Below, piece by piece: positions 3,823-36,412 of a DNA stretch of 36,412 nt (positions within the stretch are counted from its first letter, which is position 1; the number at the start of each line of letters is the position of its first letter). The notes under the pieces were generated by a model that made no database searches, was not told the DNA's origin, and worked only from the letters and a program-made list of their open reading frames with translations. Both the position numbers and the translations under genes were made by a program. Location: sequence record SRR20825006_1111; one strand, written 5' to 3'.

Positions 3823-4878
3823 TTAAGCGTTCGCCGTGCGCAGGAAAACGGCTTCCATCGCGTCGACATGCGCCGCGAAACCGTGTTTTCGCTGGCCAAT
3901 TTCGTATCCGCCCTCTGCGATACGCTGACAAAGCGCCTTGTCGGTCATAAGCCGCCGGATACAGTCCGCATAACGATCAGCATCGCGGACCGGGAACAGC
4001 AAGCCGGTCTCGCCATCCACAACCGTTTCCGGTATCGGGCCGAAATCGCTGGAGATCACGCAGGTCTTGCGTGCCATCGCCTCCAGAATGGAGACGCTGA
4101 TCAGATCGTCATTGGTCGGGAAGATCATCGCGTCCACATGTGTGAGATAGGCATCGACCTCGGCCGGTGAGATGGAGCCCAGGAAATGCACTTGCCGGGA
4201 CAATCGCGGTGAGTTTGCGACTTTTGCCTTGAGGCGTTCGGCGAAGACGGGAGTGACATCAGGCGAGCCTGCCATGAACACATGAACAGTCGGATCGTCG
4301 AGTATGTCGAGTGCCACCAGGGTAACGTCCTGGCCCTTGCGTGATGCAAGCCAGCCGAGCTGCAGCAGCGACGTCGCGCCTTCCGGCAAGGAAAATGGCT
4401 TCTCGGGTTGACCACTGCGTGGCGGGATCCCATAGGGCACGATATCCACTTGCCGCCCCTGCAGATAAGGTGCGTACAGTTCCTCCGCCTGCCAACGCGT
4501 CGGGAAGACAACGCTGTCGGCGCGCAGGAACGGCTCAACAGGGGTCCGGCCCTTGAGGACGGATGTCAGACCATCCTGCGGCTCATGAACCCAATAAAGC
4601 GTGGGCACTTTTCCCGCCGTCTTGAGAACGATCTCCGCACAAGCCAGCGTATTCGCAATAACAAGGTCGTATTCCTGCGGTCGCGCTTCCCTGACGATTG
4701 AAATACCCGCTGCCTCATAATCTCTGATCAGACCGGGTGCGGCCGTCTCGCCCATCGGCCGCAATACCACGATGTCGTGCTTGTCCGCGAGCGCCGCCAA
4801 CAATCGGTGCAACAGGAGCGGCGCGCCCGAAAAATCCATACGATGACAACAGGCGAGAATCTTCAATTTCTTTGACAT
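3823..4878 (-). CDS. GT-B glycosyltransferase, family 4
   Basis: SGAP N-terminal loop, WVHE, RKGQD and DLISVSILEAM (D-x7-E variant of E-x7-E), ETVVDGETGLL. Confidence 0.88.
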   Translation of the reverse strand: MSKKLKILACCHRMDFSGAPLLLHRLLAALADKHDIVVLRPMGETAAPGLIRDYEAAGISIVREARPQEYDLVIANTLACAEIVLKTAGKVPTLYWVHEPQDGLTSVLKGRTPVEPFLRADSVVFPTRWQAEELYAPYLQGRQVDIVPYGIPPRSGQPEKPFSLPEGATSLLQLGWLASRKGQDVTLVALDILDDPTVHVFMAGSPDVTPVFAERLKAKVANSPRLSRQVHFLGSISPAEVDAYLTHVDAMIFPTNDDLISVSILEAMARKTCVISSDFGPIPETVVDGETGLLFPVRDADRYADCIRRLMTDKALCQRIAEGGYEIGQRKHGFAAHVDAMEAVFLRTANA

Positions 4879-4948
4879 CGCTCCATTACATCCCCATAGA
4901 GTCGGTCACTCCCGCTGCGGGACTTCCATTCATCCTTGGCAACAGGTC

Positions 4949-5170
4949 ATGTTCCTAGAATATATCCAGTCCGCCTCACTGATCGCCGGGATCTTTGCAG
5001 GCATTGCAGCCTTTTTCTGGATTGCCGTCACATTGGCAATTCGCCGTCTGGATCACAGTGCGACGCCTAAAACGCTGGAAGAGCGCGAAGAAGAGATGGA
5101 CGATCTGATCCGCGACGACGCAAACCAGATCAAGAAGAAACGTCAGGACGGGCTGAAAGCCGCATCCTGA
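4949..5170 (+). CDS. Small single-pass membrane protein, unknown function
   Basis: Hydrophobic N-terminal helix (ASLIAGIFAGIAAFFWIAVTLAI), charged tail, AGGT upstream of the ATG. Fills the gap between two minus-strand genes. Confidence 0.6.
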   Translation: MFLEYIQSASLIAGIFAGIAAFFWIAVTLAIRRLDHSATPKTLEEREEEMDDLIRDDANQIKKKRQDGLKAAS

Positions 5171-5234
5171 CGCAAGCGATCTCTTTCTTCTCTCTATCCA
5201 AATCGGCTAGGCCAACCCGACCAGATCAAACCAG

Positions 5235-6155
5235 TCAGGTATTGCTGCCGACATCAAGTGTCCGGCCAATGGCCGTCGCAATCGGACGCATTGCCTTCAT
5301 CATGTCATCGAATTCCCCGAAGGAACTCGCCTGAAGCGGGTCCACCGCCGCATTGCGCGGGTCCGGATGCACTTCCAGCATCAGCGCGTCGGCACCGGCG
5401 GCAACAGACGCCAGCATCATCGACTTGACCCAGGGCTGCCAGAATGTGGCGTGGGACGGATCGGTCATCACCGGCAGATGCGTGACTTCCTGCGCAGCCG
5501 GCACGACCTGGAGGTCGAGCAGAAACCGGGAGGTTGCCCGATGCGTATGCGGCGCCACGACGCCGCGCTCGCACAGCACGATCCGCTGCTCGATACCCAG
5601 CCGGTCATGCTCAAGCGCAATATATTCCGCCGCCATCAGCCAGTCCCGCAGCGAGGAACCATAACCGCGCTTCAGCATCACCGGCATGCCGGTCTTGCCG
5701 ACCTCGGTCAGCAGCGGATAGTTCTGCATGTTCCGCGTGCCGATCTGCAGCATGTCGGCATGTTTGGCAACGATCTCGATCTTGTCGATTTCCATCACCT
5801 CGGTGACGATCGGCAGACCGGTTTCCTGCTTGGCGACAGTCAGCCATTTCAGGCCGTCTTCCCGGCTCTCGAAGAATTTCGGGCTGCGATAGGGGAAGCT
5901 CAGCGGCTTGAAAGCGCCGCCGCGCAGGAAGTGACCGCCCGCGGCTTTGATCGCCTTCGCGCTCTCGACGATCATCTCTTCGTTCTCGACCGTATTCGGG
6001 CCGGCCATGACCGGGATCAGCGGGCCTCCAATTTCAATACCGCCGCAGGTAAAGACCGTCTTGTGGTCTGGCGATTTCTTGGCGACGAGCGGGATCTTCC
6101 CCGCGATATCGTCTTCGGTCAGGTCCTTACCCGGGAATTTGTTCTCTACGGCCAT
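5235..6155 (-). CDS. DAH7P synthase type I-beta / KDO8P synthase family PEP-aldose aldolase with atypical active-site motifs
   Basis: LRGGAFKP, IVTEVM, QIGTRNMQN, MLKRG, LCERG, DPSH and EVHPDP are present, but AGPN and KPLSF replace AGPC and KPRTS. No regulatory ACT/CM domain. RBS AGGAGA. Confidence 0.85.
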   Translation of the reverse strand: MAVENKFPGKDLTEDDIAGKIPLVAKKSPDHKTVFTCGGIEIGGPLIPVMAGPNTVENEEMIVESAKAIKAAGGHFLRGGAFKPLSFPYRSPKFFESREDGLKWLTVAKQETGLPIVTEVMEIDKIEIVAKHADMLQIGTRNMQNYPLLTEVGKTGMPVMLKRGYGSSLRDWLMAAEYIALEHDRLGIEQRIVLCERGVVAPHTHRATSRFLLDLQVVPAAQEVTHLPVMTDPSHATFWQPWVKSMMLASVAAGADALMLEVHPDPRNAAVDPLQASSFGEFDDMMKAMRPIATAIGRTLDVGSNT

Positions 6156-6185
6156 GGTGCGTTCTCTCCTGCTGGGAATTTTTCT

Positions 6186-7367
6186 TCAGCGCCCGTTCAA
6201 CGTCGATAGGATAAAATCCGTGATCCGGGCAAGCAGATTGAATGGTCCGCGTGCGTCGAGATTGGCGGCAAAAGCTTTTGCGCGCTGCTCGAACGCAGGC
6301 TGGGTCAGAATTGCCTTGATGGCATGCTGCACATGTTCGGGCTGAAACCTGTTTCCGGACTGCAGCCCGGTCGAGAGACCTTTTTTGCCCGCGAATAACC
6401 CGTTCTTCAGCTGCTCGAAATGCCGGGGAACGATGCATTGCGGACGTCCCATTGCAAGCACCTGTTCAAGCGTGCCGAGACCGCCATGGTGAATGACAAC
6501 CCTGGACCGCCCAACAGCATCCGGCATCGATTGCGGTTTAGTGTGAATTGTCAGTCCCCGGCTGCGCCACTCTTCGCGCATCGCCTCGTTAGCATCCCTC
6601 AGGTAGATTTCACCCTTCCAGGAGCTTGTCGAGAGGGCTTCCAGCACTTTTGCCGTACCGGCATAGGTCGCGGAGAGATACCCGAAATAATCCTGCTCCG
6701 GCTCGACAGAAAGCGGCTTGCTCAGCGGGTTCAAAGGAGAAATCTCGGTATTTTCCCTGAACTCGGCATAAGGATCGAGTTCAGGAAGTGTCAGTACAAA
6801 GTTCCGCACCCCCTGCATGAGAGCGGGAACCCGGTCCGGCACGGGCTTGGAGCGCCGGGTCTGCACTTCCTTCACAGTCGCCAGCAGACGTGCGGGATCG
6901 ACCCGGTTGGGACTTTCCTTGAAGGTTCTGAATTCCGACCATATTCCCGGCGGCATCGTGAACCAGTCACCGATACAGACAAACGGGCGTTCGCCGTAAA
7001 CAGCCAGTGCGGCGGTTGGCGAATAATCGGTCACCACGATATCCGGATCGTAAGCATCGATGATTGTGCTCCAGCACTCCACCAGCGACATCAGCTTTTC
7101 AGGCTCGATGTAACCAACGGTCGCGAGCACGTCCCCGATCGAGGAGATCGGCTGCTGCCGGACATCCTGCGGCGCATAAGGTTCAACCCATGGCGCATGG
7201 AATACCGGAAACCCGTCCCGTGCGATCACCGGGTGCGTAACCATGAGATTGCGCACTGCGAAGGCACAGTCGACACCATTTTTCGCAAGCTCGCGCGCGA
7301 TCGGCAGCAAGCGGCTTACATGACCAAGCCCATCACCAAGTTCCCAGGCAAACAGGACCCGTTTCAC
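6186..7367 (-). CDS. GT-B glycosyltransferase, GT1/GT28-like
   Basis: N-terminal WELGDGLGHVSR, C-terminal HHGGLGT and PRHFEQ motifs. GTG start overlaps the upstream stop (GTGA). Confidence 0.82.
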   Translation of the reverse strand: MKRVLFAWELGDGLGHVSRLLPIARELAKNGVDCAFAVRNLMVTHPVIARDGFPVFHAPWVEPYAPQDVRQQPISSIGDVLATVGYIEPEKLMSLVECWSTIIDAYDPDIVVTDYSPTAALAVYGERPFVCIGDWFTMPPGIWSEFRTFKESPNRVDPARLLATVKEVQTRRSKPVPDRVPALMQGVRNFVLTLPELDPYAEFRENTEISPLNPLSKPLSVEPEQDYFGYLSATYAGTAKVLEALSTSSWKGEIYLRDANEAMREEWRSRGLTIHTKPQSMPDAVGRSRVVIHHGGLGTLEQVLAMGRPQCIVPRHFEQLKNGLFAGKKGLSTGLQSGNRFQPEHVQHAIKAILTQPAFEQRAKAFAANLDARGPFNLLARITDFILSTLNGR

Positions 7368-9175
7368 CGTCCAGCCTTTTGGTCGCGCAATTCAGTCAGT
7401 GCCGCCCCCACGCGTCCGATCACCCCGGCCCAGTCACCGGGACGTGTCTGCCGGAACAGACGCGCGGACGGATACCAGGGGCTGTCGTCACGATGCTGCA
7501 GCCATCGCCAGTCCGCATTATGGGACAGCAGGACGAAAACCGGTGCCCCCATGGCGCCGACCAGATGGGCCACGGAGGTACAGGTCGTCACCGTGACATC
7601 AAGCTGCCGTACGATCGAGACCGTGTCGGCGAAGCTCTTTATGTCCGGGCTGAGACGAATGAGAGACTTTGGAGCCTTGCTCAGATCCGCTTCGCGCGGG
7701 CCTTTCTGGAGGCTGTAGCACTGGATCCCCTGCAGCCCGAAAAGCGGCGCGTAATGCTCAACCGATGAAGAGCGGATGTTATCCCCGGCGAAAGCGGGAT
7801 TTCCGCCCCAGACGATACCGGCGTTCAATTGCGCATCATTCAGCCCCGGTACCGGAAACCGGTCTTTGCCGATGACATTGATATAGGGAGCCTTCGGCAA
7901 GTCATCGAGGGTCTTTACATCAAGCACCAACGGCAGGGAAAGCTGCGCAAAGTGGCAGTCAAATTCCGGCTCCGCCCCCGGAGTCCGCGGGACCAGTTCG
8001 ACCATGTCCGCATATTCGCTGTAGAGATCAATGACCTCCTCATGCGCCTCGAGGATAATGCGCCCCTTCTTCTGTCCGGATTGGGCGTGCTTTACAGCGT
8101 CAGGCACGAAGCGGAGGAATTGCAGGGCATCACCGATCCCCTGTTCCGCGATGAGAAAAAGGGTACGTCCTTCAAGCGGCCGACCATCCCATTCGGGCTT
8201 GTCGAACTCACGCTTCTTTGTCGGAAAGGATTCCGTTTCCCAGCGCCACTCATACTCTGCAAAACCTTCGCCGAGTTGCCCGTCCGCGAGCAGTGCCAGC
8301 GAAAGGTTCCAGTGGAACATGGCCTTCTCCGGGGCGCAGGACAAAGCCCAGCGAAACATTGCAACCGCACCGGCAGCATTGGAATTCTCTTTTTCGAGAT
8401 TGCCGAGGTTGTAGTAGGCGCCGTCATTGTCCGGCTGGAGCAACGCCGCTCGTTTCAGAGTCTGCCGCGCTTGAGCGAATTCAAGGAGGTGCCGGTAAAC
8501 CGACCCAAGGTTTGAATAAACGGCGGAAAAATCCGGCTGCCAGGCGGCGAGCAGCTCATAAGCTTTCTGTGCTCCCGGGTAGTTCTTTACACCGTATCGC
8601 GCATTGCCGACTTGCAGAACATCGTCCCGGAACCCCGCCTTGAACTCCTGTCCCCTGGCAAGAACCTTCAGGGCGCGTTCATGCTTGCCCTGTTCCCAAT
8701 AAAGTACGGCAAGATCACGCATGGCATCGAGATAGCGCGGCTTCAGATTTACCGCCGCCTCGTAATGCGTGCGCGCCGCCTCCATTTCGCCCCTGCGATA
8801 ACAATAGCCTCCGGAGAAATACTGTATGATCGCATCGCTCGGTGTGGTTTTCAGAGCCACTTTCAAAACGGCGCCAAGCAAATCGCGGTCACCAAGATCC
8901 CGGGCGACGCCCACCGCGAGGCGGTTGAAGAAAACATCGCCTCCCGCGGCCATTTTCATGCCCGTTTTGATTTTTGTACGGGCAAGGTCCTTATTCCCGC
9001 GGAGAAGGGCCCTGCGGGCCTCCAGACCGGTATAGAGGCATGTCTTGCCCACACTGGGGGCCATTTCCGCAAGAATTTTATCCGCGTCCTCGAACTTTTT
9101 CTCGCCGAGAAGGCCGAGCACCTTCTTGGCGTTCTGGTAAAGCTTCACTCTTGTCGCGGAATCAATCGGCTTCAT
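7364..9175 (-). CDS. TPR-repeat + GT9-like glycosyltransferase (TPR-GT 1)
   Basis: TPR helices (VYSNLGSVY, AYYNLGNLE), then EYEWRW, WDGRPLEG, AEQGIGDALQF, GIVWGGNP, SLQKG, TSVAHLVGAMG, DWRW, SPWYPS. Confidence 0.88.
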   Translation of the reverse strand: MKPIDSATRVKLYQNAKKVLGLLGEKKFEDADKILAEMAPSVGKTCLYTGLEARRALLRGNKDLARTKIKTGMKMAAGGDVFFNRLAVGVARDLGDRDLLGAVLKVALKTTPSDAIIQYFSGGYCYRRGEMEAARTHYEAAVNLKPRYLDAMRDLAVLYWEQGKHERALKVLARGQEFKAGFRDDVLQVGNARYGVKNYPGAQKAYELLAAWQPDFSAVYSNLGSVYRHLLEFAQARQTLKRAALLQPDNDGAYYNLGNLEKENSNAAGAVAMFRWALSCAPEKAMFHWNLSLALLADGQLGEGFAEYEWRWETESFPTKKREFDKPEWDGRPLEGRTLFLIAEQGIGDALQFLRFVPDAVKHAQSGQKKGRIILEAHEEVIDLYSEYADMVELVPRTPGAEPEFDCHFAQLSLPLVLDVKTLDDLPKAPYINVIGKDRFPVPGLNDAQLNAGIVWGGNPAFAGDNIRSSSVEHYAPLFGLQGIQCYSLQKGPREADLSKAPKSLIRLSPDIKSFADTVSIVRQLDVTVTTCTSVAHLVGAMGAPVFVLLSHNADWRWLQHRDDSPWYPSARLFRQTRPGDWAGVIGRVGAALTELRDQKAGR

Positions 9176-10842
9176 GACAGGCTCAATCTTATCAAACCAA
9201 ACTTCGCAAGAGCCGGCAGCGTGCGCCGCAATGGCCCCCGTTCAACCGGATCAACCCATGCCTCAAGCTGAGAGAGCGGGACCGTGCCAGCCTCGCCAAG
9301 CCGTTTCAGCAGCATTTCCGTCAAGGACGGGCTTAAACGAAACTCGGATGAAAAGGAAACGAAGGAATGGCGGGACAGGAATTCGTTGGCGTCCTCGGGC
9401 ATTCCGGGCGCCAATGACACCAGCGTCTCGGGAGAGAGGACAAAGCTCGGGTGTGTCCGGAAAATGTCAAACGGATCGGGATACAGAGGGCTTGCGCTCT
9501 CCTTCGGCTGTCTCGGGGCCACTTCCGGCGCTGAGTGCCGAAGCTCTCTCAGCTCCAGCCAAAGCTCCTCATACGCCCGGACGATAACAGACCAGTCATA
9601 GACTTCTGCTGCCCGCCGCCGCCCGGCCGCCCCCATCCTGTGCCTCAGGGCTGGATCTTCGGCAAGACGGACCAGGGCTTCGACGGCTGCCGCAAGATCG
9701 CTTCCCGTCGACATACAGGCCCGTCCGACGAAACGGTCATAGTTATCGCGGCCAGACTGATAAAGATAAGCATATTCGAAGCCATCCCCCCCGCTCGGTG
9801 TAACGGTGGGAATACGGAACCCGGTCTCACCATCAACGATGGTATCCTTGTACCCGTCCCAGTCGCTTACCACCGCAGGCAAACCGGCCGCCATTGCCTC
9901 TATCGGTGTGAGGCCAAAGGTCTCCTGGATATTATCCGAGAGGGACAGAAAAGCGTCCGCGCCTTGCCAGGAGGCATGCACTAGGTCGTCATCCTGACCA
10001 TCGACGAAATGAACTGAAGCCTTTTCCGTATAGGCAGCCGCACTATCCAGATAGGACTGGTAGATGGTCTCGTTCGGGGCCTGCCCGGCCATCACGAAAT
10101 GCACCTTGCGATCCTGCAGACGACGGGCCACGCCTTCCGCCGCGAGGTACATCGGAACCGGGTGGGCTTTCGCATGAAAGGTGAAGCGCCCCAGGAAGAG
10201 AATGACGAAATCCTCTTCCGCCGCTCCGATATGCTTGCGCAACCGGGCACGCGCCTCCGCGTCGGCAGCGTACCGGCTGCTGTCCACGCCAAGCGGGATA
10301 ATTGGCAGCTTCAGATCGACTTTCGGCGCCGCACCAAGGCGCCGTTCCAGATATTCCCCGTAATTCTCCACCGTGTGCCGGACAACATCGCGCGCGACCT
10401 GCGACGTACAAATGAGGGCGTCCCAGGGCTGAAGCGGGAGCAGATTATAGCGGGACAATGCTTCGATGACCCGATCGGACGACAATGTGTGGGTTATTCC
10501 ACAAAGGCTGTAGGCCCGCTGGTCTCGCGTCCTCCGCTCCCAGGCAAATTCGTCGAAGCCTGGTCCGGCGACCAGAAGGCACTCGGCTTCCCCTGGCTTC
10601 GCGAGCATCGAATTCAGGTGGCTTACATTCCGGCCCTGCAAATCGATGGTCCTGGCCATCTCGGAAAATTCCGCGGCATGCCGGCCGTTCGGGGTAACCG
10701 TGACAAACTTTTCCGCGCGGCCGTGCCGGAAATAACCGGAAAGGAAACCCGCCCCCGCAGCATGGCGCCCTTTGACCCCTACCCGGTCGGCTCGATAAGC
10801 ATCCGGGTGGTAATGAATGGCGCAAACAGGGATGGATGACAC
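9172..10842 (-). CDS. GT4 glycosyltransferase (long form)
   Basis: IPLGVD, LFLGRFTFHAKAHP, DNIQETFGLTPIEAMAAGLP (E-x7-E), SDWDGYKDT. GTG start. Confidence 0.9.
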   Translation of the reverse strand: MSSIPVCAIHYHPDAYRADRVGVKGRHAAGAGFLSGYFRHGRAEKFVTVTPNGRHAAEFSEMARTIDLQGRNVSHLNSMLAKPGEAECLLVAGPGFDEFAWERRTRDQRAYSLCGITHTLSSDRVIEALSRYNLLPLQPWDALICTSQVARDVVRHTVENYGEYLERRLGAAPKVDLKLPIIPLGVDSSRYAADAEARARLRKHIGAAEEDFVILFLGRFTFHAKAHPVPMYLAAEGVARRLQDRKVHFVMAGQAPNETIYQSYLDSAAAYTEKASVHFVDGQDDDLVHASWQGADAFLSLSDNIQETFGLTPIEAMAAGLPAVVSDWDGYKDTIVDGETGFRIPTVTPSGGDGFEYAYLYQSGRDNYDRFVGRACMSTGSDLAAAVEALVRLAEDPALRHRMGAAGRRRAAEVYDWSVIVRAYEELWLELRELRHSAPEVAPRQPKESASPLYPDPFDIFRTHPSFVLSPETLVSLAPGMPEDANEFLSRHSFVSFSSEFRLSPSLTEMLLKRLGEAGTVPLSQLEAWVDPVERGPLRRTLPALAKFGLIRLSLS

Positions 10843-11023: not shown

Positions 11024-11743
11024 GTGACGATTGCAGACACCGCCTCGTCCCCACTTCGCATCTTTGTTGGCTGGGACAGCCGCGAAACCATCGCATATGA
11101 TGTTTGCGAGCACTCACTGCAGCGCCATAGCAGCACCGGTCTTGAGATTATACCGCTAAAACAGGATGAGTTGCGCGCTAGGAAGCTCTTCACGAGAGAT
11201 CTCGACCCCCTCGCTTCCACCGAGTTCACCTATACACGGTTCCTTATGCCCCACCTCGCCGGGTATGAAGGCTGGGCGCTTTTTTGTGACTGCGATTTCC
11301 TTTGGACCCGGGATGTTGCGCAGCTCTTCGCGGAAGCGGATGACAGCAAGGCGATAATCTGCGTACAGCACGATTATCAGCCGACAGAGCGCACCAAGAT
11401 GGATGGCAAGGTCCAGACCAATTATCCGCGCAAAAACTGGTCCAGCATGATGCTGATGAATTGCGGTCATCCGGCAAACGCAGTCCTGACACCGGAAATC
11501 GTCAATACGGAAACCGGCGCTTTCCTGCACCGCTTCCAGTGGCTGGACGATGCGTTGATCGGCAGCGTGCACCATACCTGGAACTGGCTTGAAGGCTGGT
11601 ACGACAAGCCATCCGACGGTCAGCCGCCGGCTGCGGTTCACTATACGCGCGGCGGCCCATGGTTCAAGGAATGGCAGGATGTCGACTATGGCGATCTATG
11701 GCTTGCCGAAGCGGATATGGTCAGAGCGAAAGAGACCGCCTGA
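11024..11743 (+). CDS. GT-A (GT8-like) glycosyltransferase resembling the CDI-type family
   Basis: IFVGWDSRE, STEFTYTRFL, DxD motif (DCD), YPRKNWSS, FLHRFQWL, HYTRGGPWF. Confidence 0.8.
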   Translation: MTIADTASSPLRIFVGWDSRETIAYDVCEHSLQRHSSTGLEIIPLKQDELRARKLFTRDLDPLASTEFTYTRFLMPHLAGYEGWALFCDCDFLWTRDVAQLFAEADDSKAIICVQHDYQPTERTKMDGKVQTNYPRKNWSSMMLMNCGHPANAVLTPEIVNTETGAFLHRFQWLDDALIGSVHHTWNWLEGWYDKPSDGQPPAAVHYTRGGPWFKEWQDVDYGDLWLAEADMVRAKETA

Positions 11744-19472: not shown

Positions 19473-19473
19473 A

Positions 19474-23397: not shown

Positions 23398-23431
23398 AAA
23401 AAAACGGGCGGATCAAACATGATCCGCCCGT
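23398..23431 (-). terminator. Rho-independent terminator of the RTX gene
   Basis: Perfect 12-bp inverted repeat ACGGGCGGATCA-AACA-TGATCCGCCCGT (23404-23431), followed on the minus strand by a T run, 18 nt after the RTX stop. Confidence 0.9.
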
Positions 23432-23449
23432 CTTCATTCTTTGCCGGAC

Positions 23450-28582: not shown

Positions 28583-29599
28583 TCAGACTTTTTCATCGTC
28601 ACCCAAATAGGCGAACCAGGTTTTTGTCGCATCCGCGATTGAATCCGGATCCCAGAGCGGGGCATCCTTCCAGCGTTCGATATCCGCCAGCATACGGGCT
28701 ACGCCATCCTCAAAGGAAATTTCCGGCTCCCAGCCCAGTTCACCCTGCAGCTTGGAAATATCCGCCCAGGTTACATCGGGCTCACCCGGCCGCTTCGGAA
28801 CATAAACGACCTCGCCGCCGATCAGTTCGACAAGCCGATTGATGGATTGCGGGTTTCCGCCGCCGGCATTGTAGATTTCACCGGATTTCTCGGTCAGCGC
28901 GGCGGCATGAAATGCGCGCGCCAAGTCAGAAGCATAGATGAAATCCCGCCGCTGCGTGCCGTCGCCAACGACCGTGAAGGGTTTACCCGCGAGTTTCTGG
29001 CGCAGGAAAACACCAAAGACAGCACCATACGCACCCGTTGTCCGAACCCGCGTGCCGTATGCATTGAAGATCCGCACCGAGTTGGCCGGCAGCCCATAGA
29101 CCTGATGCCAATGCAAGACCGCCTGCTCACCCTGATATTTGCTGAGAGCATAGGGATATTGCGGCTGTGCGGGATGCTGCTCGGTGGTCGGCGTGTCCGC
29201 CAGTCCGTAACAGGATGAAGACGCAGCATAGACCAGCTTCTCGACATTCGCCTCCCGCGCGCATTCGAGAACATGGACGGTGCCTTGCGCATTCGTCGCC
29301 ATATAATCGATAGGTCGCTCGATCGACGGCACAATGTCGCCGATTCCGGCAAAGTGATAGACGAAATGAGCGCCTTCAAAGGCGGGCCGCATGGACTCGA
29401 TGTCCCGGATGTCCGCCTCAAAGATCTTCAGGTCCGGATTGTCCGCATGGTGCTTTAGATTAGAGCGATGCCCGCCGACGAAATTGTCGACCACATGTAC
29501 ACGGAACCCTTCGGACAACAGAAGGTCGACCATATGACTCCCGATGAAACCGGCACCACCAGTGACGACCGCTGTATACGCCTTATGCACTTGGCTCAT
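28583..29599 (-). CDS. NAD-dependent epimerase/dehydratase (extended SDR)
   Basis: TGGAGFIGSH, YAASSSCYG, YALSK, RIFNAYG, GDGTQRRDF. Start reassigned to ATG 29599 (RBS GAGGGA) rather than 29713. Confidence 0.92.
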   Translation of the reverse strand: MSQVHKAYTAVVTGGAGFIGSHMVDLLLSEGFRVHVVDNFVGGHRSNLKHHADNPDLKIFEADIRDIESMRPAFEGAHFVYHFAGIGDIVPSIERPIDYMATNAQGTVHVLECAREANVEKLVYAASSSCYGLADTPTTEQHPAQPQYPYALSKYQGEQAVLHWHQVYGLPANSVRIFNAYGTRVRTTGAYGAVFGVFLRQKLAGKPFTVVGDGTQRRDFIYASDLARAFHAAALTEKSGEIYNAGGGNPQSINRLVELIGGEVVYVPKRPGEPDVTWADISKLQGELGWEPEISFEDGVARMLADIERWKDAPLWDPDSIADATKTWFAYLGDDEKV

Positions 29600-29718
29600 T
29601 CCCTCTGCACGGTTGAATTCCTGAGGCTCACACCCGATAACGACCTGAGTAACACAAGCGGTGACAGAATTTACAGACTGCTGCTTGATAATAAGACAAT
29701 TTCGAGGGTTCAAAGGGC

Positions 29719-30177
29719 ATGGCAGTTAAATGGGTTCTGGAATCAGATCTGGTATTCCTTGAACCAGCAGTGCGTTTTGCGCGCCTAAGCCCCAATGCCA
29801 TCCGTGAATATGTCGGCGACACGAAGATTGGCGCCCTGGCCTACCCGGCTCCTTTTTGCCAACAGTCTTCAGACTGGATGCGCGCGCTCTCCCATATCGT
29901 GGGCAGAAATCGCGACTACTCCCTCTATCTGGTAAAAGTCAGCTCCGATAATGACCGGAAGGAACTCAGCCGGACCCGCATTGTTCCGACACTCGATACC
30001 GAGACGCTGGACCTTCTCCGTCAGATAAACCAATCGGAAACCGATGAGCTTGAATCGCAGAGCAAACGGATTTCGGCTGCGATGGAGCGCTTACGGGAGC
30101 GTGCCAAATTCGCTCTGACAGACGATCTGTCAGAGCTGTATGATCCTGATCAGCACGATCTTGATCTTCAAAAGTAA
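29719..30177 (+). CDS. Hypothetical protein (152 aa, helical acidic C-terminus)
   Basis: ATG with upstream GAGGG/AAAGGG, occupies otherwise empty space divergent from the epimerase. No motif recognised. Confidence 0.55.
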   Translation: MAVKWVLESDLVFLEPAVRFARLSPNAIREYVGDTKIGALAYPAPFCQQSSDWMRALSHIVGRNRDYSLYLVKVSSDNDRKELSRTRIVPTLDTETLDLLRQINQSETDELESQSKRISAAMERLRERAKFALTDDLSELYDPDQHDLDLQK

Positions 30178-30317: not shown

Positions 30318-30695
30318 ATGAAAAAATTCGTCTTGCTTCTGATACTCTGCACTGGCCTTGCGGCCTGCAATTCGGAAGAGGAAACCGTCGACGGACGCTG
30401 GGTCGGCACGATCTCAGCTGAGGACCGGGTTGACCTCAGGATCGAAGGACAGCGTCCCGACGACCAGTTTGTCGTGATCTTCAAGCCCGGGCAGGTTCGT
30501 CTGAATGATACGGTCCGCCCCGTCGAATACCTCTCCAACAACGGGCGGACGATCGTGCATTTCAAGGACGAGAACCGGGCATTGACGGTCTATCACGAGG
30601 AAGAAGACCCGAAGACAATCGAACTCAACGCTGTCAGCTATTTTCGGGGCAAGGTTCACCGCTTTACGCTGCATCGAGCGCCGGACGAGCAATAA
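30318..30695 (+). CDS. Small lipoprotein of unknown function
   Basis: MKK + hydrophobic stretch + lipobox LAAC, beta-rich mature part. Confidence 0.8.
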   Translation: MKKFVLLLILCTGLAACNSEEETVDGRWVGTISAEDRVDLRIEGQRPDDQFVVIFKPGQVRLNDTVRPVEYLSNNGRTIVHFKDENRALTVYHEEEDPKTIELNAVSYFRGKVHRFTLHRAPDEQ

Positions 30696-30718: not shown

Positions 30719-31924
30719 ATGCCCCCCTCGCAAAGTCATGTCGGGATTGCCTGGCATCTCGATCAGCTCTCCGGGTGGGGTAATTACGGCTATCAGATAA
30801 TCAAGCATATGTGCCTTGGCACGGAATACAGGCCGGTCTTGCTTGAGGACCGGGACGACGGTTTCAGCGACTCAATAGAAAAGGCGCTGATCGACAGGCG
30901 GCTGGATGAGCCACTGAAAACGAACCCGGGCCTGGTCGAGCGGATGATTAGCATCCGCCGGAAAGCCTTCATCCCAATCCTTCACGCGCTCGGCGAGGAT
31001 GCAAGGCCCGCATTTTCAAAACGTTCGGCCGGGATCGTCGGCTCGACGAACCACGCTCTTACATTCTTCGAGAATGGCAATATTTCCGAGATATCCCGGG
31101 ACATCTACAATCGGTTCGAAAGTGTCACTGCCGGTTCCTCCTGGAACGCCGATCTGCTCGCCGGGAACCGGGTCCGCAATGTCGAGATGTGTATACAGGG
31201 AATAGATCCATCCCGCTTTCATCCGGCGCCCAATCGTAACCTCTTTCCTGACCGCTTCGTCATATATGCCGGAGGGAAAATGGAATTCCGCAAAGGTCAG
31301 GATATTGTCCTTCGCGCGATTTCAAAGTTCATTGAAACACACGACGATGCCTTGCTGATTTGCGTCTGGGGAAACAAATGGGCAAATAGCAACGGCTACC
31401 GCTGGTTTGCCAATTCTCCACATATTGAAAACCCGCCCCGCCCAAAATCGGGTACTAACGTCGACCTATTGCGCTGGTTCGAAACCTTCGGCCTGCGGCA
31501 AAGGCATGTCATGGCATTCAACCACTATCCCCATGCGGACACTCCGGGCCTGATCCGTGAGGCCGATGTCGCCGTCTTCGCCAATCGATGCGAGGGCGGA
31601 ACCAATCTCGTCGCCATGGAAACAATGGCCTGCGGCATCCCCACGATCATCTCCAAGAATACAGGGCATCTTGACATCATATTTGATGGAGCCTGCCTGC
31701 CTCTGACGGATCAGCGGCAGGTCGTCATCGACGAGGCCGGATACGACGCCAGTCACTGGGGCGAATCATCGGTCGATGAAATTATCGCGCATCTTGAATT
31801 CGCCTACGATCAGCGAGAAAAAGCACGCTCCATTGGCGCTGCGGGTGCCCGGAAAATGCAAAAATTCACCTGGGACAAACAGGTAGGACACTTGATACAG
31901 GGCCTGAAAAAACATGGCCTCTGA
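30719..31924 (+). CDS. GT4 glycosyltransferase
   Basis: SGWGNYG, QGIDPSRFHP, GGKMEFRKGQD, NRCEGGTNLVAMETMACG. Confidence 0.88.
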   Translation: MPPSQSHVGIAWHLDQLSGWGNYGYQIIKHMCLGTEYRPVLLEDRDDGFSDSIEKALIDRRLDEPLKTNPGLVERMISIRRKAFIPILHALGEDARPAFSKRSAGIVGSTNHALTFFENGNISEISRDIYNRFESVTAGSSWNADLLAGNRVRNVEMCIQGIDPSRFHPAPNRNLFPDRFVIYAGGKMEFRKGQDIVLRAISKFIETHDDALLICVWGNKWANSNGYRWFANSPHIENPPRPKSGTNVDLLRWFETFGLRQRHVMAFNHYPHADTPGLIREADVAVFANRCEGGTNLVAMETMACGIPTIISKNTGHLDIIFDGACLPLTDQRQVVIDEAGYDASHWGESSVDEIIAHLEFAYDQREKARSIGAAGARKMQKFTWDKQVGHLIQGLKKHGL

Positions 31925-33017
31925 AGGCAGCCTTCCCCTATGCGTTCATGCTCTTGGCTGGTTTGAGGGGCGCTTCGGATACAATACGCACACACGGAAT
32001 TTCTTTGACCGGCTTTCCCGCCTGCAATCCGTTACCACCTCCCCGATGATAGGACTTGAGGGGGCGTGGGAAGAGGACAGACAGTTACTCCTGCACGTAC
32101 CGAAGCTGACCCCCCATGCAACAATTGCTCTCCTGTACGGTAATCTCATGGGTATTCTCGACGACGCACCGGGGCGGCGTATCGCCTATACCGTCTGGGA
32201 ATCCACCAAATATCCTGACGACTGGATCGGGCCTCTTTCACGAGCGGACGAGATTTGGATCCCCAGCAAATGGGGGCGGGATGTCCTGATCGACAATGGT
32301 CTTCCGGCTGAACGGATTCATGTTGTCCCGGAAGGCGTGGACCCGATCCTGTTCAACCCGGACATTACCCCAACCGAAGCATTGAAAAATTTCAACGGAT
32401 TCAAGTTCCTCAATATCGGCCGTTACGAGGAACGCAAGGGAACCGCCAAGCTGATCAAGTGCTTTGACCGGGCATTCGGAAGCAATGACGACGCTGTTCT
32501 GGTTCTTGCCTGTGACAATCAGCACGATCCCGATTTCAATATCGGAAAAATTCTGCGGGGTCTTGAATTGCAGCACCCGGAACGCATCGCCTTTATCCCG
32601 CCGGTCCGGTCTCATGCGCGCCTTGCAGAAATATACCGGTCCTGTGACGCCTTCGTTTCGCCTTTCCGCGCGGAAGGGTGGGGGCTGCCCGTGATTGAGG
32701 CCATGGCTTGCGGCCTACCGGTCATCGCAACAGGCTATAGCGGCCCGACCGAATTCCTTGGCGACACGGCTTACTCAATAGACTTCAGATTGACCGATAT
32801 CGATATTCCTTACTTCGATGCATCGGACAGCAACTATGGCCAGTGGGCTGATCCTGACGAGGATCATATGATCGCCCTGATGCGCGAAGTCTATGCGGAG
32901 CGGGAAGCAGCCAAACGGCGCGGGCTGCAAGGCTCAAGCCATGTTATTGAAAATTTCAGCTGGGATCACGCGGCGCAAAAAGCTGCAACCCGGCTAGATG
33001 AAGCAATTTCCCGCTAA
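31914..33017 (+). CDS. GT4 glycosyltransferase
   Basis: YTVWEST, WIPSKWG, VPEGVD, IGRYEERKG, FRAEGWGLPVIEAMACG. Overlaps the upstream gene by 11 nt. Confidence 0.92.
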   Translation: MASEGSLPLCVHALGWFEGRFGYNTHTRNFFDRLSRLQSVTTSPMIGLEGAWEEDRQLLLHVPKLTPHATIALLYGNLMGILDDAPGRRIAYTVWESTKYPDDWIGPLSRADEIWIPSKWGRDVLIDNGLPAERIHVVPEGVDPILFNPDITPTEALKNFNGFKFLNIGRYEERKGTAKLIKCFDRAFGSNDDAVLVLACDNQHDPDFNIGKILRGLELQHPERIAFIPPVRSHARLAEIYRSCDAFVSPFRAEGWGLPVIEAMACGLPVIATGYSGPTEFLGDTAYSIDFRLTDIDIPYFDASDSNYGQWADPDEDHMIALMREVYAEREAAKRRGLQGSSHVIENFSWDHAAQKAATRLDEAISR

Positions 33018-33022: not shown

Positions 33023-33943
33023 TCACAAGCTCGCCAGGGCGTTCCAGGCTCGATAATTTGCAGAAAAAGTCACTCTCGCGCTCGCCTGCTCGGCAGTCGA
33101 CATCGCCTGCTTCCGCATGCCTGAAAGCGCAGGATCTGCATTTTGGTAGCAACGAATAAGATCGATAAGCTGAAGTGCGATCTTCTCCGGTGTAACGCTG
33201 TCCACCCAAACGCCATTTTCCGCAGAAGCTATTCCCGTAAGGCCGCCTCCATGGTCCGCGAACGGAAGCAGCCCGGCCGCCATGGCGTCAAGAAGTGGCA
33301 ACGCAGAGCCGGAAAGCGGACGAAGAGCAAACAGGATATCGCATGCCGGAAGATTCTCCTGCCAGCCCGACGGATCGCTGAAATTCAGCTCAACCCACTC
33401 TATGCCGGCAAAATCTTTATCCATCCGGGAAACATATCCCTGGACGAATTTGACAGTGGCGCTTCGGTGCGAGAGATACCCAATCCGTGGCAAGCGGCCT
33501 TCTATCGGCTCGTCCCGCTTTCCTTCAATAACATAATGTGTCGCGACATTAAGTGTGCCGAGCTTTTGTCCGTGCGGATAATGCCTGATGTTTTTTTCAT
33601 GCGCCGCCCCGGGAACCAGTAATGCGGCAACCTTATGCTGGGCCCTGATCCAGCATTGAGAGGCTTCCCAAAAAACATACGGGTTCCAAAGTACAGGAGC
33701 CAGCAGGCGGGTCTCTCCGGCTCCTTCCTCCAGGAGAGGAGCTATCGCTGCATGCGCGCCCAGATCAAAAACAAAAACCGGCTGGCGGGCTCCTTCAACA
33801 GCGTCTTTGTCATTCGCTCGCACCAGACGCGCCTGCAATCCGGCCTCAGTGAGCAGATCCACCTGCGACTGATAGAATCTGCGTTTTTCCTCTTTCCAGT
33901 CCTCATCGTCGGTGAGGACAAACACGATCTCGCGGCGGCTCAT
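33023..33943 (-). CDS. GT4-like protein with degenerate nucleotide-sugar-binding motif; paralogue of the upstream gene
   Basis: SGSALPLLDAMAAG...HGGG...ASAENGVW aligns with EGLGLPPLEAMRAG...HGGG...ATPENGIW of 33940..34887. ATGA overlap. Confidence 0.7.
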   Translation of the reverse strand: MSRREIVFVLTDDEDWKEEKRRFYQSQVDLLTEAGLQARLVRANDKDAVEGARQPVFVFDLGAHAAIAPLLEEGAGETRLLAPVLWNPYVFWEASQCWIRAQHKVAALLVPGAAHEKNIRHYPHGQKLGTLNVATHYVIEGKRDEPIEGRLPRIGYLSHRSATVKFVQGYVSRMDKDFAGIEWVELNFSDPSGWQENLPACDILFALRPLSGSALPLLDAMAAGLLPFADHGGGLTGIASAENGVWVDSVTPEKIALQLIDLIRCYQNADPALSGMRKQAMSTAEQASARVTFSANYRAWNALASL

Positions 33944-34887
33944 TGCTCAGCACCCAAAAACGATCGCCAGAAAGCCAGCAGCTCAGCCTCCATGCTTTCC
34001 TTTTGGTATAGAGCCGCCGTCCGCCGGCCGGCCGCGATCATGTCGGAATAGGCACCCGGATCCTGCTTCAACCTGTCGATGGCTTCGGCGGCGAGTCCGG
34101 CGAGCCCGTCGGGTGTCGCCTGATCGTACCAGATACCGTTTTCCGGCGTTGCGTAATCCAGCCCGCCACCGCCGTGATACCCGATCACGATACAACCGGC
34201 CCGCATCGCCTCAAGCGGCGGAAGCCCAAGCCCTTCATGCCCGCTCAATGACAGAAAGATAGCGCTTTCCGCCATGATCCGTGCAACCTCGTCAGGGTGC
34301 ATATTATTGATACTGACAAATTTGATCTGTGCGTGTTCGCGATGCAGATACCGCAAATGATAGATCACAGTTCCCGCTTCGGTCAGCCGCTTCCGCGGCA
34401 TGTAGCAAATCTGGAGTTTTTTGGCTGGTTCCGGGACTTCCTTCTGCATGATGCAAGGGCGGAGAACAATCGGGTTGGTCACCCCATGCACATCACGAAG
34501 ATAGGCCGCCGCAGGCTCGGAAACACAGATAAACGCATCAATCGGAAAATCCGAAAGTCGCTCAGACGGTTCGAGATACTGATCGAGGAAATAATGGTTC
34601 TGGCAGAAAAACACCTTCCGCAAGGGCATTGAGACAATTCGCTCGAAATGCCGTCTCGGTATGGAATCGTGCAAGACGGCCACGTCACCTTTGGAAACAC
34701 TAAACTTGTTACCGTCGACGATTGGCACGGTGGGCGATAACCAGTCCGGCCGTTCGCCCTTAAGCGTCGTCGAAATCTTTGCATCATATCCGGCCCGCAC
34801 AAGGGCCTCGACATGTGCAGCCTGAACCATCACTCCCCCGACAGGGGTCTGCAAATTCTCAATCGACAGATAGATGATCTGGCTCAT
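33940..34887 (-). CDS. GT4 glycosyltransferase
   Basis: PVGGVMV, FCQNHY, CYMPRKR, SLSGHEGLGLPPLEAMRAGC. Confidence 0.88.
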   Translation of the reverse strand: MSQIIYLSIENLQTPVGGVMVQAAHVEALVRAGYDAKISTTLKGERPDWLSPTVPIVDGNKFSVSKGDVAVLHDSIPRRHFERIVSMPLRKVFFCQNHYFLDQYLEPSERLSDFPIDAFICVSEPAAAYLRDVHGVTNPIVLRPCIMQKEVPEPAKKLQICYMPRKRLTEAGTVIYHLRYLHREHAQIKFVSINNMHPDEVARIMAESAIFLSLSGHEGLGLPPLEAMRAGCIVIGYHGGGGLDYATPENGIWYDQATPDGLAGLAAEAIDRLKQDPGAYSDMIAAGRRTAALYQKESMEAELLAFWRSFLGAEQ

Positions 34888-34908
34888 CAGGCGGTTCCGT
34901 TCACGGCA

Positions 34909-36060
34909 TCACGAATCGAAGAACACTTTTGATCCGATTTGCCTGAAAGGCGGCGCATCACGAAGGATCCGGAGGATGCGATCCGTAGCATGCCCGTCCC
35001 CATATGGGCTTACCGTTTCACGACAATCCATCCCAAGCCCTTGATCGATCGCATTCAAGATTGCACCACGCTCCGGCGCGCAATCAATGACAGAGGCCGC
35101 TTTCAGGCGGCCGTCCTGCCGGGTGCCGATATTGACCGTCGGTATGCCGAAAGACGGCGCTTCATAGAGTCCGCTGGACGAATTACCCACAACCATCGAG
35201 GCGTGGCGCAATGCCGAGAGATAGAGTAACTGGCCGAGCGACTCGCGGGCAATGATCCGTGGTGAACGCGCGGCCGTCTCCATCAAGGCCTGGTTGAGAG
35301 CCGCACCGCCACTATCGGCATTGGCATAGGTGACAAGCGACACGTGATCCTCCGGAAGCGCCTCAAGCGCGGCCAGAAGTTCACCAAACTGCTCCACGGG
35401 CGAGCCTTTGTCCGCCGTCGCCGGATGGAAGGTCACAACGAGCAGATGCTTGTCGAGCGGTGCGCCGACTCGCCGCTCCACCTCGTCTTTCGACAGCAGC
35501 TCAAGAGAGCGGATCGAGTCGAGTGCCGGCGTTCCCGTCGTATGCACATTCGCCGGATCTTCCCCCATCCGGACCAAACGGGCGCTGGCCTCGTCATTGG
35601 TGGTGAAATGCAGGTTCGAGAATTTCGAGATCGCGTGCCTCAACCCGTCATCAAGCGAGCCTGACGTGACATCGCCACCGGCAATATGCGCAATGGGAAT
35701 ATTCAGCAGGTAGGCAGCCGACGCAGCGGCAAAGGTTTCGAAACGGTCCCCCAGCAACAGTACGAGATCCGGCCGCTTCAGACTCCATGCTTTGGTGAAA
35801 CCGGCCATCCCGGCACTGGTCGACAGCGCAACCTCTTCATGAGAGCCGCCCGTCGTCTGGCAATCGATCCTGCTGGCAATCTCGAAACCGGCAGCCATGA
35901 CCTCTTCGACTGTGTGTCCGAACCGGGGCGACAAATGCATGCCCGTAACATAGAGATCGAGCGTGAAACCCGGCTCCGCGAGGATGGCATCCAGAACCGG
36001 TTTCTGGATGCCGAAATCAGCGCGGCTGCCTGTCACACCGGCAATGATCTGACGCTGCAT
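34909..36060 (-). CDS. neuC: Hydrolysing NDP-N-acetylhexosamine 2-epimerase (NeuC/LegG)
   Basis: VTGSRADFG, TGMHLSPRFGHT, LLGDRFE, AHIAGGD, RHAISK, VTFHP, GNSSSGLYEAPSF, NIGTRQDGR, YGDG. Confidence 0.93.
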   Translation of the reverse strand: MQRQIIAGVTGSRADFGIQKPVLDAILAEPGFTLDLYVTGMHLSPRFGHTVEEVMAAGFEIASRIDCQTTGGSHEEVALSTSAGMAGFTKAWSLKRPDLVLLLGDRFETFAAASAAYLLNIPIAHIAGGDVTSGSLDDGLRHAISKFSNLHFTTNDEASARLVRMGEDPANVHTTGTPALDSIRSLELLSKDEVERRVGAPLDKHLLVVTFHPATADKGSPVEQFGELLAALEALPEDHVSLVTYANADSGGAALNQALMETAARSPRIIARESLGQLLYLSALRHASMVVGNSSSGLYEAPSFGIPTVNIGTRQDGRLKAASVIDCAPERGAILNAIDQGLGMDCRETVSPYGDGHATDRILRILRDAPPFRQIGSKVFFDS

Positions 36061-36064
36061 GCCG

Positions 36065-36412
36065 TCAGCCCTGGCGCCCGAGCTTCGGGCTGCTCGGCAG
36101 ATTAACGATCCGATCCACCAGCTTTTCCGTCACCGCAAGCGATGCCCTTGGGCATTCACTGTTGAAGGAAAGTTCATGCATCGGCGTCCAGCAGGGCCGG
36201 GCCTGAATGCCGTCCCCGTTCAACGCCTCCAGCAGAGCTTCACGCGCGGCCCGGTCGGGCACCATGACCACGTTGAGCCAGTAATTGCTGACACAGCCTT
36301 CCGGCTGGCTGAAGAACTCTACATCCGGGACAGTAGCCAGCGCCGCACGATACCGCTCCGCCAACGCCCGCTTCTCCGACAGGAATTGCGGCAGCATCTC
36401 GAACTGGGCACA
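36065..36412 (-). CDS. legC: C-terminal part of a DegT/DnrJ/EryC1/StrS aminotransferase, LegC-like (starts beyond the right edge)
   Basis: KRALAERY, SNYWLN, RPCWTPMHEL, RIVNLPSS. Directly upstream of neuC, as in legionaminic acid operons. Confidence 0.78.
   Translation of the reverse strand, partial: CAQFEMLPQFLSEKRALAERYRAALATVPDVEFFSQPEGCVSNYWLNVVMVPDRAAREALLEALNGDGIQARPCWTPMHELSFNSECPRASLAVTEKLVDRIVNLPSSPKLGRQG

Follow-up and report, generated by a model that had tools for sequence, protein, structure and literature searches.

A dense glycosylation island was found at positions 3823–36412 of sequence record SRR20825006_1111, a stretch of 36,412 nucleotides (hereafter the window) whose right edge it reaches; the carrier was a marine Nisaea-type bacterium. 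Within the island, genes for five proteins that combine tetratricopeptide repeats with a glycosyltransferase (GT) domain (TPR-GTs) were interleaved with those for a type I secretion system (T1SS) and a single RTX protein. Judging from this gene neighbourhood, the RTX protein may be O-glycosylated in the cytoplasm before it is exported by the T1SS, an interpretation that was given an even chance of being correct. An earlier note, written from the letters of the window, had offered the same interpretation. It was strengthened by a conserved linkage of TPR-GTs, T1SS and RTX gene, by flagellin genes that lay elsewhere with TPR-GT paralogs of their own, and by the two-domain build of the enzymes; it was weakened by a GT9-like catalytic fold, which leaves the donor unfixed, and by an incomplete legionaminic-acid (Leg) pathway.

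Genes were called from a list of open reading frames (ORFs) combined with Pfam and NCBIfam profile scans of the window proteins. Those on which the interpretation chiefly depends were as follows (lengths in amino acids, aa; transmembrane, TM):

7364–9175, minus strand: TPR-GT T1, 603 aa, about eight TPR pairs followed by a GT9-like GT-B domain
11721–13436, minus strand: TPR-GT T2, 571 aa, assigned by TPR Pfam matches and by catalytic-domain alignment and tree
14930–16693, plus strand: T1SS ABC permease/ATPase of PrtD type, 587 aa (TIGR01842, 587 bits, cut-off 510), with six TM-like windows
16709–18097, plus strand: T1SS membrane-fusion protein of HlyD type, 462 aa (TIGR01843, 371 bits, cut-off 209)
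18153–19472, plus strand: TPR-GT T3s, 439 aa, with a short TPR part, in a hypervariable block of low G+C content (GC), GC 0.48
19474–21852, plus strand: TPR-GT T4L, 792 aa, with a long N-terminal part, in the same low-GC hypervariable block, GC 0.41
23404–23431, no strand assigned: GC-rich hairpin of 12 bp, a possible terminator in the gap that separates the RTX stop codon from the first codon of a cytidylyltransferase gene, from a consensus scan only
23450–25078, minus strand: RTX protein, 542 aa, 52.0 kDa (PF00353, 368 bits, 19 stretches), the proposed acceptor and T1SS substrate
25526–27379, minus strand: TPR-GT T5, 617 aa, adjoining the RTX gene, assigned by TPR Pfam matches and by catalytic-domain alignment and tree

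The five genes with TPR and GT-B domains named in the earlier note were all confirmed by their ORFs, TPR Pfam matches and GT-B domain, and the PrtD-type T1SS that it described had both its PrtD and HlyD components above curated cut-offs. T1, T2, T3s, T4L and T5 each began with TPR repeats and ended in a domain of about 300 aa, and all five shared the motif 'EQG-x-GD'. Their build was soluble and about 600 aa long in T1, T2 and T5, while T3s and T4L deviated in length.

The AlphaFold2 model of full-length T1 (pLDDT 91.2) was matched best in the PDB by SPINDLY and OGT (E 3e-16 to 1e-9), cytosolic protein O-glycosyltransferases of GT41 in which a TPR superhelix is followed by GT-B, as is predicted for T1. 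The TM-scores of these comparisons were low (0.2–0.3) because the TPR part dominates the match. Both the PDB sequence search with a full-length profile and the full-length fold search returned mostly TPR matches, and the catalytic domain was therefore modelled separately; 16 catalytic domains were aligned and the domain alone was modelled (pLDDT 91.2). In contrast to the whole protein, the isolated domain matched GT9 first and not GT41: the top Foldseek results were the GT9 enzymes WaaF (1psw), WaaC (2h1h) and 3tov (TMq 0.55–0.64, 3tov 0.64), followed by the protein O-heptosyltransferase TibC (TMq 0.49–0.52). A catalytic-domain profile gave weak matches to PDB sequences, four of the five being heptosyltransferases (E 0.06–0.2). 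No TPR-GT reached the cut-off of PF01075, for which T3s scored 19.1 bits against 22 and the other four had no match, and the Pfam scan of all five produced no match to PF13844, the GT41 catalytic domain; among the Atlas neighbours of the TPR-GTs, PF01075 was present on a minority of members. On these models, the catalytic domains are GT9-like GT-B domains, while the whole architecture resembles that of OGT and SPINDLY. The GT9 enzymes WaaC and WaaF, and TibC from among the BAHT protein heptosyltransferases (TibC/Aah), are thus the nearest modelled folds for the catalytic domain, with the differences that the island was without ADP-heptose genes and that PF01075 was below cut-off or absent. TibC acts in the cytoplasm, glycosylating a secreted protein rich in repeats; it has no TPR domain and is an iron-bound dodecamer.

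Evidence for a functional tie came from gene order in relatives. A profile made from T1 and 16 homologs identified 79 loci in reference genomes, and 23 island proteins were compared by tblastn with 10 kb on each side of every locus. Among the 23 loci closest to T1 (L001–L022 and L047), PrtD and HlyD occurred in nine and an RTX match in seven others; the other seven had neither T1SS nor RTX, and three of these were on contigs shorter than 11.3 kb. Two glycosyltransferase genes flanking T1 belonged to the conserved core:

6186–7367, minus strand: GT1/GT28-like GT-B glycosyltransferase, 393 aa (PF04101, E 7e-7), beside T1 in 17 of the 23 close loci
9172–10842, minus strand: GT4 glycosyltransferase, 556 aa (PF00534, 79.5 bits)

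In Nisaea denitrificans DSM 18348, a cultured type strain, the island was complete and collinear with the window, at about 93.7–125.8 kb of contig G002:C6. Thalassobaculum carried every gene of the set, but rearranged; there, in BAL199 and in two Thalassobaculaceae genomes, the order was GT4, T1, GT1, RTX, TPR-GT, Gfo, TPR-GT. The RTX ortholog of Thalassobaculum, BAL199 and genome G126 followed GT4-T1-GT1 directly and was similar to that of the window over its full length (43% identity), and in three genomes of this type the best PrtD match was about 11 kb from T1. The synteny survey proposed in the earlier note therefore showed that rearrangement has not separated TPR-GTs, T1SS and RTX in Nisaea, Thalassobaculum, BAL199 and further lineages. 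Being kept in several genera although the gene order has changed, the arrangement goes beyond chance.

A maximum-likelihood tree of 20 catalytic domains resolved five orthologous TPR-GT lineages, each containing the copies from the window, N. denitrificans and Thalassobaculum. Four of the triplets had support of 99–100, while the branch order within the T3s lineage was left open by the placement of Thalassobaculum. The five paralogs have thus been distinct since before the genera split, which argues that each has its own task. T1 and T3s formed one clade, and T2, T4L and T5 fell in a deep clade together with paralogs linked to flagellin and PseI genes, although these latter paralogs were outside the five island lineages.

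That deep clade is relevant to a second explanation, in which the TPR-GTs and Leg genes serve flagellins encoded elsewhere, or some other protein of the cytoplasm, and the RTX and T1SS genes are neighbours without any functional tie. FlmG-type enzymes are indeed known to modify flagellins with CMP-activated pseudaminic acid (CMP-Pse) or CMP-Leg (PMC7591256; 10.1101/2022.03.25.485807), and each of five relatives' genomes contained six or seven flagellin matches. None of these was on the contig with the island, however, and flagellin was absent within 10 kb of all 79 T1-homolog loci (the positive control gave 16 matches). The genomes also possess further TPR-GTs in flagellin and PseI clusters. 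The T1 catalytic domain matched at least 13 distinct ORFs in the genome of an uncultured Nisaea sp. (G001), where one paralog of 584 aa lay inside a flagellin/FlbT/FlaF cluster and another near a second flagellin. At 36–54 kb of contig G001:C5, three TPR-GT paralogs of 569, 612 and 576 aa stood in tandem after genes for a SAF-domain PseI, a cytidylyltransferase and a GNAT protein. This PseI scored 471 bits with TIGR03586, and two of the three TPR proteins were among the T1 catalytic-domain matches; by its gene content, the cluster is likely to serve flagellin pseudaminylation, with three transferases instead of one. Since the GT-RTX-T1SS linkage has also outlasted rearrangement across genera, unlike that of chance neighbours, a flagellin acceptor for the island enzymes was regarded as highly improbable.

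The RTX protein, for its part, had the features expected of a T1SS substrate. It was acidic by composition and without cysteine, with 22% glycine, 13% aspartate and only six lysines and arginines together. Nonapeptide repeats extended from about residue 10 to about residue 440 and were followed by a C-terminal domain of about 100 aa with a conserved end motif. Six orthologs were alike in length (536–565 aa), mass (51.5–55.2 kDa), acidity, lack of cysteine and number of lysines plus arginines (5–6); in all six the N-terminus and the C-terminal 100 or so residues with the end motif were strongly conserved. For the ortholog of N. denitrificans DSM 18348 the mass calculated without modification was about 51.6 kDa. 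With tandem GGxGxD nonapeptide repeats and an uncleaved C-terminal secretion signal, the protein is predicted from its sequence to be secreted. Each ortholog contained 9–16 N-X-S/T sequons; 'GND-T/S' belongs to the usual RTX consensus. Serine and threonine made up 17.3% of the protein, the highest value among 23 island proteins compared though not an extreme one, so that the single RTX protein of the earlier note was upheld while the Ser/Thr enrichment ascribed to it proved modest. A scan for promoters and terminators around the RTX gene gave counts no higher than those of shuffled sequences, only one strong hairpin being of note. This hairpin, at 23404–23431, would be in keeping with strong, monocistronic expression of RTX.

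The genes that might supply and modify the sugar donor were found on either side of the RTX gene:

21839–22684, plus strand: FkbM-family methyltransferase, 281 aa (TIGR01444, 68 bits)
22681–23397, minus strand: CMP-sugar cytidylyltransferase of NeuA/LegF/PseF type, 238 aa (PF02348, 62 bits; PseF model 90 bits, below cut-off)
27439–28557, minus strand: Gfo/Idh/MocA oxidoreductase of sugar-nucleotide dehydrogenase type, 372 aa (PF01408, PF22725; UDP-GlcNAc 3-dehydrogenase model 96 bits, below cut-off)
28583–29713, minus strand: short-chain dehydrogenase/reductase (SDR) of sugar-nucleotide epimerase/dehydratase type, 376 aa (PF01370, 207 bits)
34909–36060, minus strand: hydrolysing UDP-GlcNAc 2-epimerase of NeuC/LegG type, 383 aa (TIGR03568, 414 bits, cut-off 236)
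36068–36412, minus strand: LegC-family aminotransferase, C-terminal 115 residues, cut by the window edge, 97% identical to the G001 gene

The Leg genes of the window itself were therefore NeuC/LegG, the cytidylyltransferase and a fragment of LegC; of the legC-, neuC- and neuA-type genes claimed by the earlier note, the latter two were present and the first was represented by the 115-residue fragment at the edge. The window could be aligned from end to end with a 67-kb contig of the uncultured Nisaea sp. (G001:C10) at 88.7% nucleotide identity, and just beyond the corresponding edge this contig contained a full LegC (TIGR04181, 527 bits, cut-off 420) and then a LegB-like dehydratase (TIGR04180, 462 bits, cut-off 475). 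A synthase of NeuB_NnaB type (428 bits) and a NeuD-type acetyltransferase were on a contig other than that of the island in G001, and lay about 23 kb from the end of the island in N. denitrificans. The relatives' genomes thus seem to run two nonulosonate routes: a Pse-type route, by the flagellin-linked TPR-GTs, and a Leg-type route most of whose genes flank the RTX island. This picture matches the 'insulated pathways' described for FlmG (10.1101/2022.03.25.485807), although it does not make the island proteins relatives of FlmG.

If the RTX protein is the acceptor, events might proceed in three steps, of which the biochemistry, the acceptor, the donors and the order are all conjectural. In the first, donors would be made by LegB and LegC, NeuC/LegG, the CMP-transferase, the SDR protein, the Gfo-type dehydrogenase and the FkbM methyltransferase, together with NeuB/LegI and an acetyltransferase encoded elsewhere. 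In the second, the 52-kDa RTX protein, unfolded in the low-calcium cytoplasm, would be caught by the TPR superhelices of five non-redundant TPR-GTs; these TPR plus GT9-like transferases would glycosylate its serines and threonines, and soluble GT4 and GT1 enzymes would lengthen the glycans. In the third, the conserved C-terminal signal would be read by the neighbouring PrtD/HlyD pump, whose outer-membrane partner would have its gene elsewhere, and the modified chain would be exported, to fold outside the cell as a beta-roll and produce a surface layer or fibrils. A TolC-type outer-membrane component was absent from the window ORFs scanned, the rest of the genome not having been searched.

Part of the island was observed to be hypervariable. 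The block at 18153–25078, comprising T3s, T4L, FkbM, the cytidylyltransferase and RTX, had a GC of 0.37–0.48 against about 0.58. Compared with G001, these five proteins were 67–78% identical, while most other island proteins were 91–99% identical, the exceptions being T2 (90%) and a weak glycosyltransferase at 33023–33943 (86%). Compared with N. denitrificans, identity was 92–98% for housekeeping-like genes, 58% for RTX and 41–49% for T5, T4L, T3s, FkbM and the cytidylyltransferase. To judge by these values, the block looks like a swapped cassette in an otherwise conserved island. The RTX protein thus appears to diversify along with part of the glycosyltransferase set, as would be expected of an exposed antigen and its decoration.

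Several observations weigh against glycosylation of the RTX protein. The Leg pathway was incomplete within the island, and the GT9-like fold means that the donor need not be a nonulosonate at all. A Ser/Thr content of 17% is unexceptional among RTX proteins, and serine or threonine was present in all six orthologs at only 15 of 592 alignment columns. About nine further glycosyltransferases suggest a long or complex glycan, more typical of polysaccharides, and a heavily glycosylated chain would need to pass through the T1SS channel. TPR domains also occur in polysaccharide enzymes, such as Cps3D (8qoy), which was among the fold matches of full-length T1. At 56 T1-homolog loci, mostly cyanobacterial, no T1SS or RTX match was found within 10 kb. 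Nisaea sp. G128 retained the GT1-T1-GT4-GT4_3 block, but here it adjoined wzt/wzm genes (ABC_tran, ABC2_membrane), and N. denitrificans had elsewhere a wzm/wzt pair (with a Wzt_C domain) that had few glycosyltransferases beside it and could serve a glycan made by the island.

In the main alternative, the RTX protein would be an unglycosylated subunit of an S-layer or fibril that the T1SS exports, while the glycosyltransferases, TPR-GTs included, would build an O-antigen or capsule on a lipid carrier; exported by machinery with genes at another site, this polysaccharide would anchor the protein, as with RsaA of Caulobacter and the Sap proteins of Campylobacter fetus. O-antigen synthesis that depends on an ABC transporter likewise normally involves soluble GT4 and GT1 enzymes that lack TM segments, and O-antigen genes adjoin the Caulobacter RsaA locus. 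Glycosylation of RsaA is not known. In G128, the conserved glycosyltransferase block abuts not only wzt/wzm but also a 1038-aa GT2-methyltransferase fusion, SapC and a distant T1SS, and in N. denitrificans, with its separate wzm/wzt, the island FkbM protein could provide a cap for the chain end. The observed hypervariability would be just as natural in an O-antigen locus. Smooth lipopolysaccharide serves as the anchor of RsaA, and rsaD and rsaE follow rsaA (PMC3034196); the island likewise placed an RTX protein and a PrtD-type T1SS beside surface-glycan genes, as in RsaA-RsaDE and C. fetus Sap (PMC3034196), and SapC was found in the variant cassette of G128.

Other evidence speaks against a polysaccharide product. 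The scan of window ORFs identified no flagellin, flippase, polymerase, ligase, ABC-2 exporter or priming transferase, in agreement with the earlier note, which had however allowed that flagellin or wzm/wzt genes might lie just past the right edge. In the closest relative, the flanks of the island (21 kb to the right and 9 kb to the left on G001:C10) contained neither these genes nor any for a priming transferase, flippase, polymerase, ligase or ABC-2 exporter. The absence of priming transferase, ABC-2 exporter, flippase, polymerase and ligase from island and flanks extended to three genomes, so that the island differs from the RsaA and Sap loci in having no polysaccharide export genes in or beside it, and of the 79 loci only two had wzm/wzt beside the T1-family gene. 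RsaA has a non-repeat N-terminal anchor. The island protein, in contrast, has repeats almost from its first residue, and therefore no separate N-terminal domain of the RsaA-anchoring kind. The TPR-GT paralogs in flagellin and PseI clusters point to protein acceptors, and in Thalassobaculum and BAL199 the RTX gene was located inside the run of glycosyltransferase genes. A polysaccharide was judged the less likely explanation, though the foremost rival.

The cassette that takes the place of the variable part of the island in G128 (G128:C4, about 66–89 kb) contained, besides wzt/wzm, SapC and the fusion protein, two TPR-GT41 (OGT-like) proteins and further methyltransferases. Its distant T1SS (35–37% identity) was accompanied by a 540-aa acidic protein without family match, possibly a secreted surface protein of another kind. 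N. nitritireducens (L004) had remnants of wzt/wzm. The wzm/wzt genes of N. denitrificans were next to a GT9 gene and one for a 1003-aa unknown protein. A membrane protein of the LPG_synthase_TM family was seen twice, once at this wzm/wzt and GT9 locus, at L119:3204–5360, and once in the left flank of the island contig, at L081:224–4401, by E1 dehydrogenase subunits and a DegT aminotransferase.

The remaining genes of the island were the following:

3823–4878, minus strand: GT4 glycosyltransferase, 351 aa (PF00534, 91.6 bits), a strain-specific addition with no counterpart in N. denitrificans
5235–6155, minus strand: protein like type I-beta 3-deoxy-D-arabino-heptulosonate 7-phosphate (DAHP) synthase, 306 aa (TIGR01361, 271 bits, cut-off 268)
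11024–11743, plus strand: conserved protein of 239 aa, possibly GT-A, with a DxD-like motif (identity 98% in G001, 79% in N. denitrificans, 61% in Thalassobaculum)
13421–14728, minus strand: GT4 (Glyco_trans_4_3) glycosyltransferase, 435 aa (PF12000, 209 bits)
29719–30177, plus strand: conserved protein of 152 aa without family match (identity 93% in G001, 60% in N. denitrificans)
30318–30695, plus strand: small lipoprotein, 125 aa, signal peptide with lipobox cysteine, conserved in G001 and N. denitrificans
30719–31924, plus strand: GT4 glycosyltransferase, 401 aa (Pfam)
31914–33017, plus strand: GT4 glycosyltransferase, 367 aa (Pfam)
33023–33943, minus strand: weak GT-B glycosyltransferase, 306 aa (PF00534, E 6e-4, below cut-off; identity 86% in G001, 34% in N. 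denitrificans)
33940–34887, minus strand: GT4 glycosyltransferase, 315 aa (Pfam)

Besides the TPR-GTs there were thus eight glycosyltransferases with Pfam support and one probable GT-A. The latter, the product of 11024–11743, matched no Pfam or NCBIfam family, and is a probable ninth glycosyltransferase on account of its DxD-like motif and conservation. A Kyte-Doolittle scan of the island proteins revealed no convincing TM segment in any of its glycosyltransferases, the few windows over threshold falling within GT folds; the earlier note's count of about nine further glycosyltransferases without obvious TM segments was therefore sound.

The small conserved proteins of unknown role (11024–11743, 29719–30177 and 30318–30695) raise the question of whether the sugars go to something else, encoded in the island or unlinked to it, such as the 125-aa lipoprotein or the glycosyltransferases themselves, or whether the TPR domains scaffold a multi-enzyme complex, the RTX protein being co-regulated surface cargo. 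The very large size of the GT-domain family, often with 3–6 tandem copies in giant proteins, also suggests roles beyond a single acceptor. Yet the small genes adjoin TPR-GTs less consistently than do RTX and T1SS, only the 239-aa ORF recurring in Thalassobaculum, and an acceptor of this kind was given very little credence.

The gene at 5235–6155, which the earlier note did not mention, stayed close to the T1 block in many genomes, at 77–99% identity against 38–66% for its neighbours. It was considered as a substitute nonulosonate synthase and rejected, since it passed the DAHP synthase model and was far better conserved than its neighbours, and because true NeuB/PseI genes are encoded elsewhere in relatives. 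Its conservation indicates that it is probably a housekeeping aro gene, marking an old insertion site at the border of the island. To the left of the island, positions 1–3647 contained housekeeping genes (methionine-synthase-type methyltransferases, methylenetetrahydrofolate reductase and an ArsR-methyltransferase fusion). Two of these ORFs, 3–1067 and 941–1810, both on the minus strand, overlapped and both matched the homocysteine S-methyltransferase domain; the N-terminal module of a methionine synthase may have been split or duplicated here. Scans of the window for tRNA genes and Rfam families produced no matches.

On G001:C10, the left flank contained methionine synthase, E1 dehydrogenase subunits, an aminotransferase, an LPG-synthase-type membrane protein and a GNAT protein; to the right of LegC and the LegB-like gene were unrelated genes, for LodA/LodB-like, SDR, UDP-glucose dehydrogenase, PhyH, pirin, peptidase and NACHT proteins, among others. 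The gene for the 737-aa NACHT-domain protein (57938–60151, minus strand; G+C at third codon positions 0.32) was 12 kb past the island, and is probably a separately acquired gene of defence type.

Among known systems, FlmG of Caulobacter crescentus and Brevundimonas subvibrioides offers a close functional parallel to the proposed glycosylation of the RTX protein. FlmG is a soluble two-domain protein of about 600 aa, in which the TPR part binds flagellin and the C-terminal part is GT-B; it works in the cytoplasm, ahead of the passage of its target through a narrow export channel, and is encoded next to Pse/Leg genes (PMC7591256; 10.1101/2022.03.25.485807). By architecture, rather than by comparison with FlmG sequences, the island TPR-GTs may be likened to it in size and in their TPR/GT-B build. 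Leg-type genes adjoin them likewise, though a GT9-like fold does not fix CMP-Pse or CMP-Leg as the donor. They differ in having no flagellin nearby, in being five paralogs instead of one, and in having a T1SS and an RTX gene as neighbours; one preprint, moreover, confines FlmG to the Caulobacterales. Protein searches that each listed 120 matches named none of them as FlmG, and a genome search across the class gave matches in 28 of 121 genomes.

A precedent for the proposed product exists in SwmA of Synechococcus and oscillin of Phormidium, which are extracellular RTX glycoproteins (PMC3034196), as the earlier note had stated. Oscillin has 646 aa and 46 repeats, and consists almost wholly of repeat (PMC3034196), a build shared by the 542-aa island protein. 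The parallel is limited in that the glycosyltransferases of oscillin and SwmA are not named in the relevant part of PMC3034196 and that no RTX gene was found within 10 kb of cyanobacterial T1 homologs. Outside the Alphaproteobacteria, T1 homologs were found mainly in filamentous cyanobacteria (Microcoleus, Phormidium, Leptolyngbya and relatives) at 30–38% identity, where they often adjoined a homolog of the island GT4 at 30719–31924.

The GT-domain family was not captured by Pfam. With a threshold of E <= 0.001 it comprised 47,971 cluster representatives, of which 30,116 remained at E <= 1e-30. Its top-scoring representatives were giant proteins of 1,300–3,100 aa with 3–6 tandem copies of the domain. 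A broader and rather unlikely proposition is that TPR plus GT9-like proteins constitute a large class, as yet unnamed, of glycosyltransferases that act on proteins in the cytoplasm, of which an ancient set of five is dedicated here to one T1SS substrate, and that the same class makes RTX glycoproteins of oscillin and SwmA type in filamentous cyanobacteria. Were this so, type I secretion could carry a pre-glycosylated RTX chain composed entirely of repeats.

Searches of full-text literature found no account that connects TPR-glycosyltransferases with an RTX substrate of a T1SS. Should the RTX protein be glycosylated before export as proposed, the island would, as far as those searches found, represent the first genetically defined glycosylation pathway for a T1SS substrate in Alphaproteobacteria. 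Its presence in complete form in N. denitrificans DSM 18348 allows the two main explanations to be told apart by ordinary genetics and mass spectrometry, and it would provide a handle on a GT-domain family of 47,971 cluster representatives outside Pfam. The logic of FlmG and OGT, in which the TPR part selects the acceptor and the GT-B part the sugar, would thereby be extended from flagellin to RTX surface proteins.

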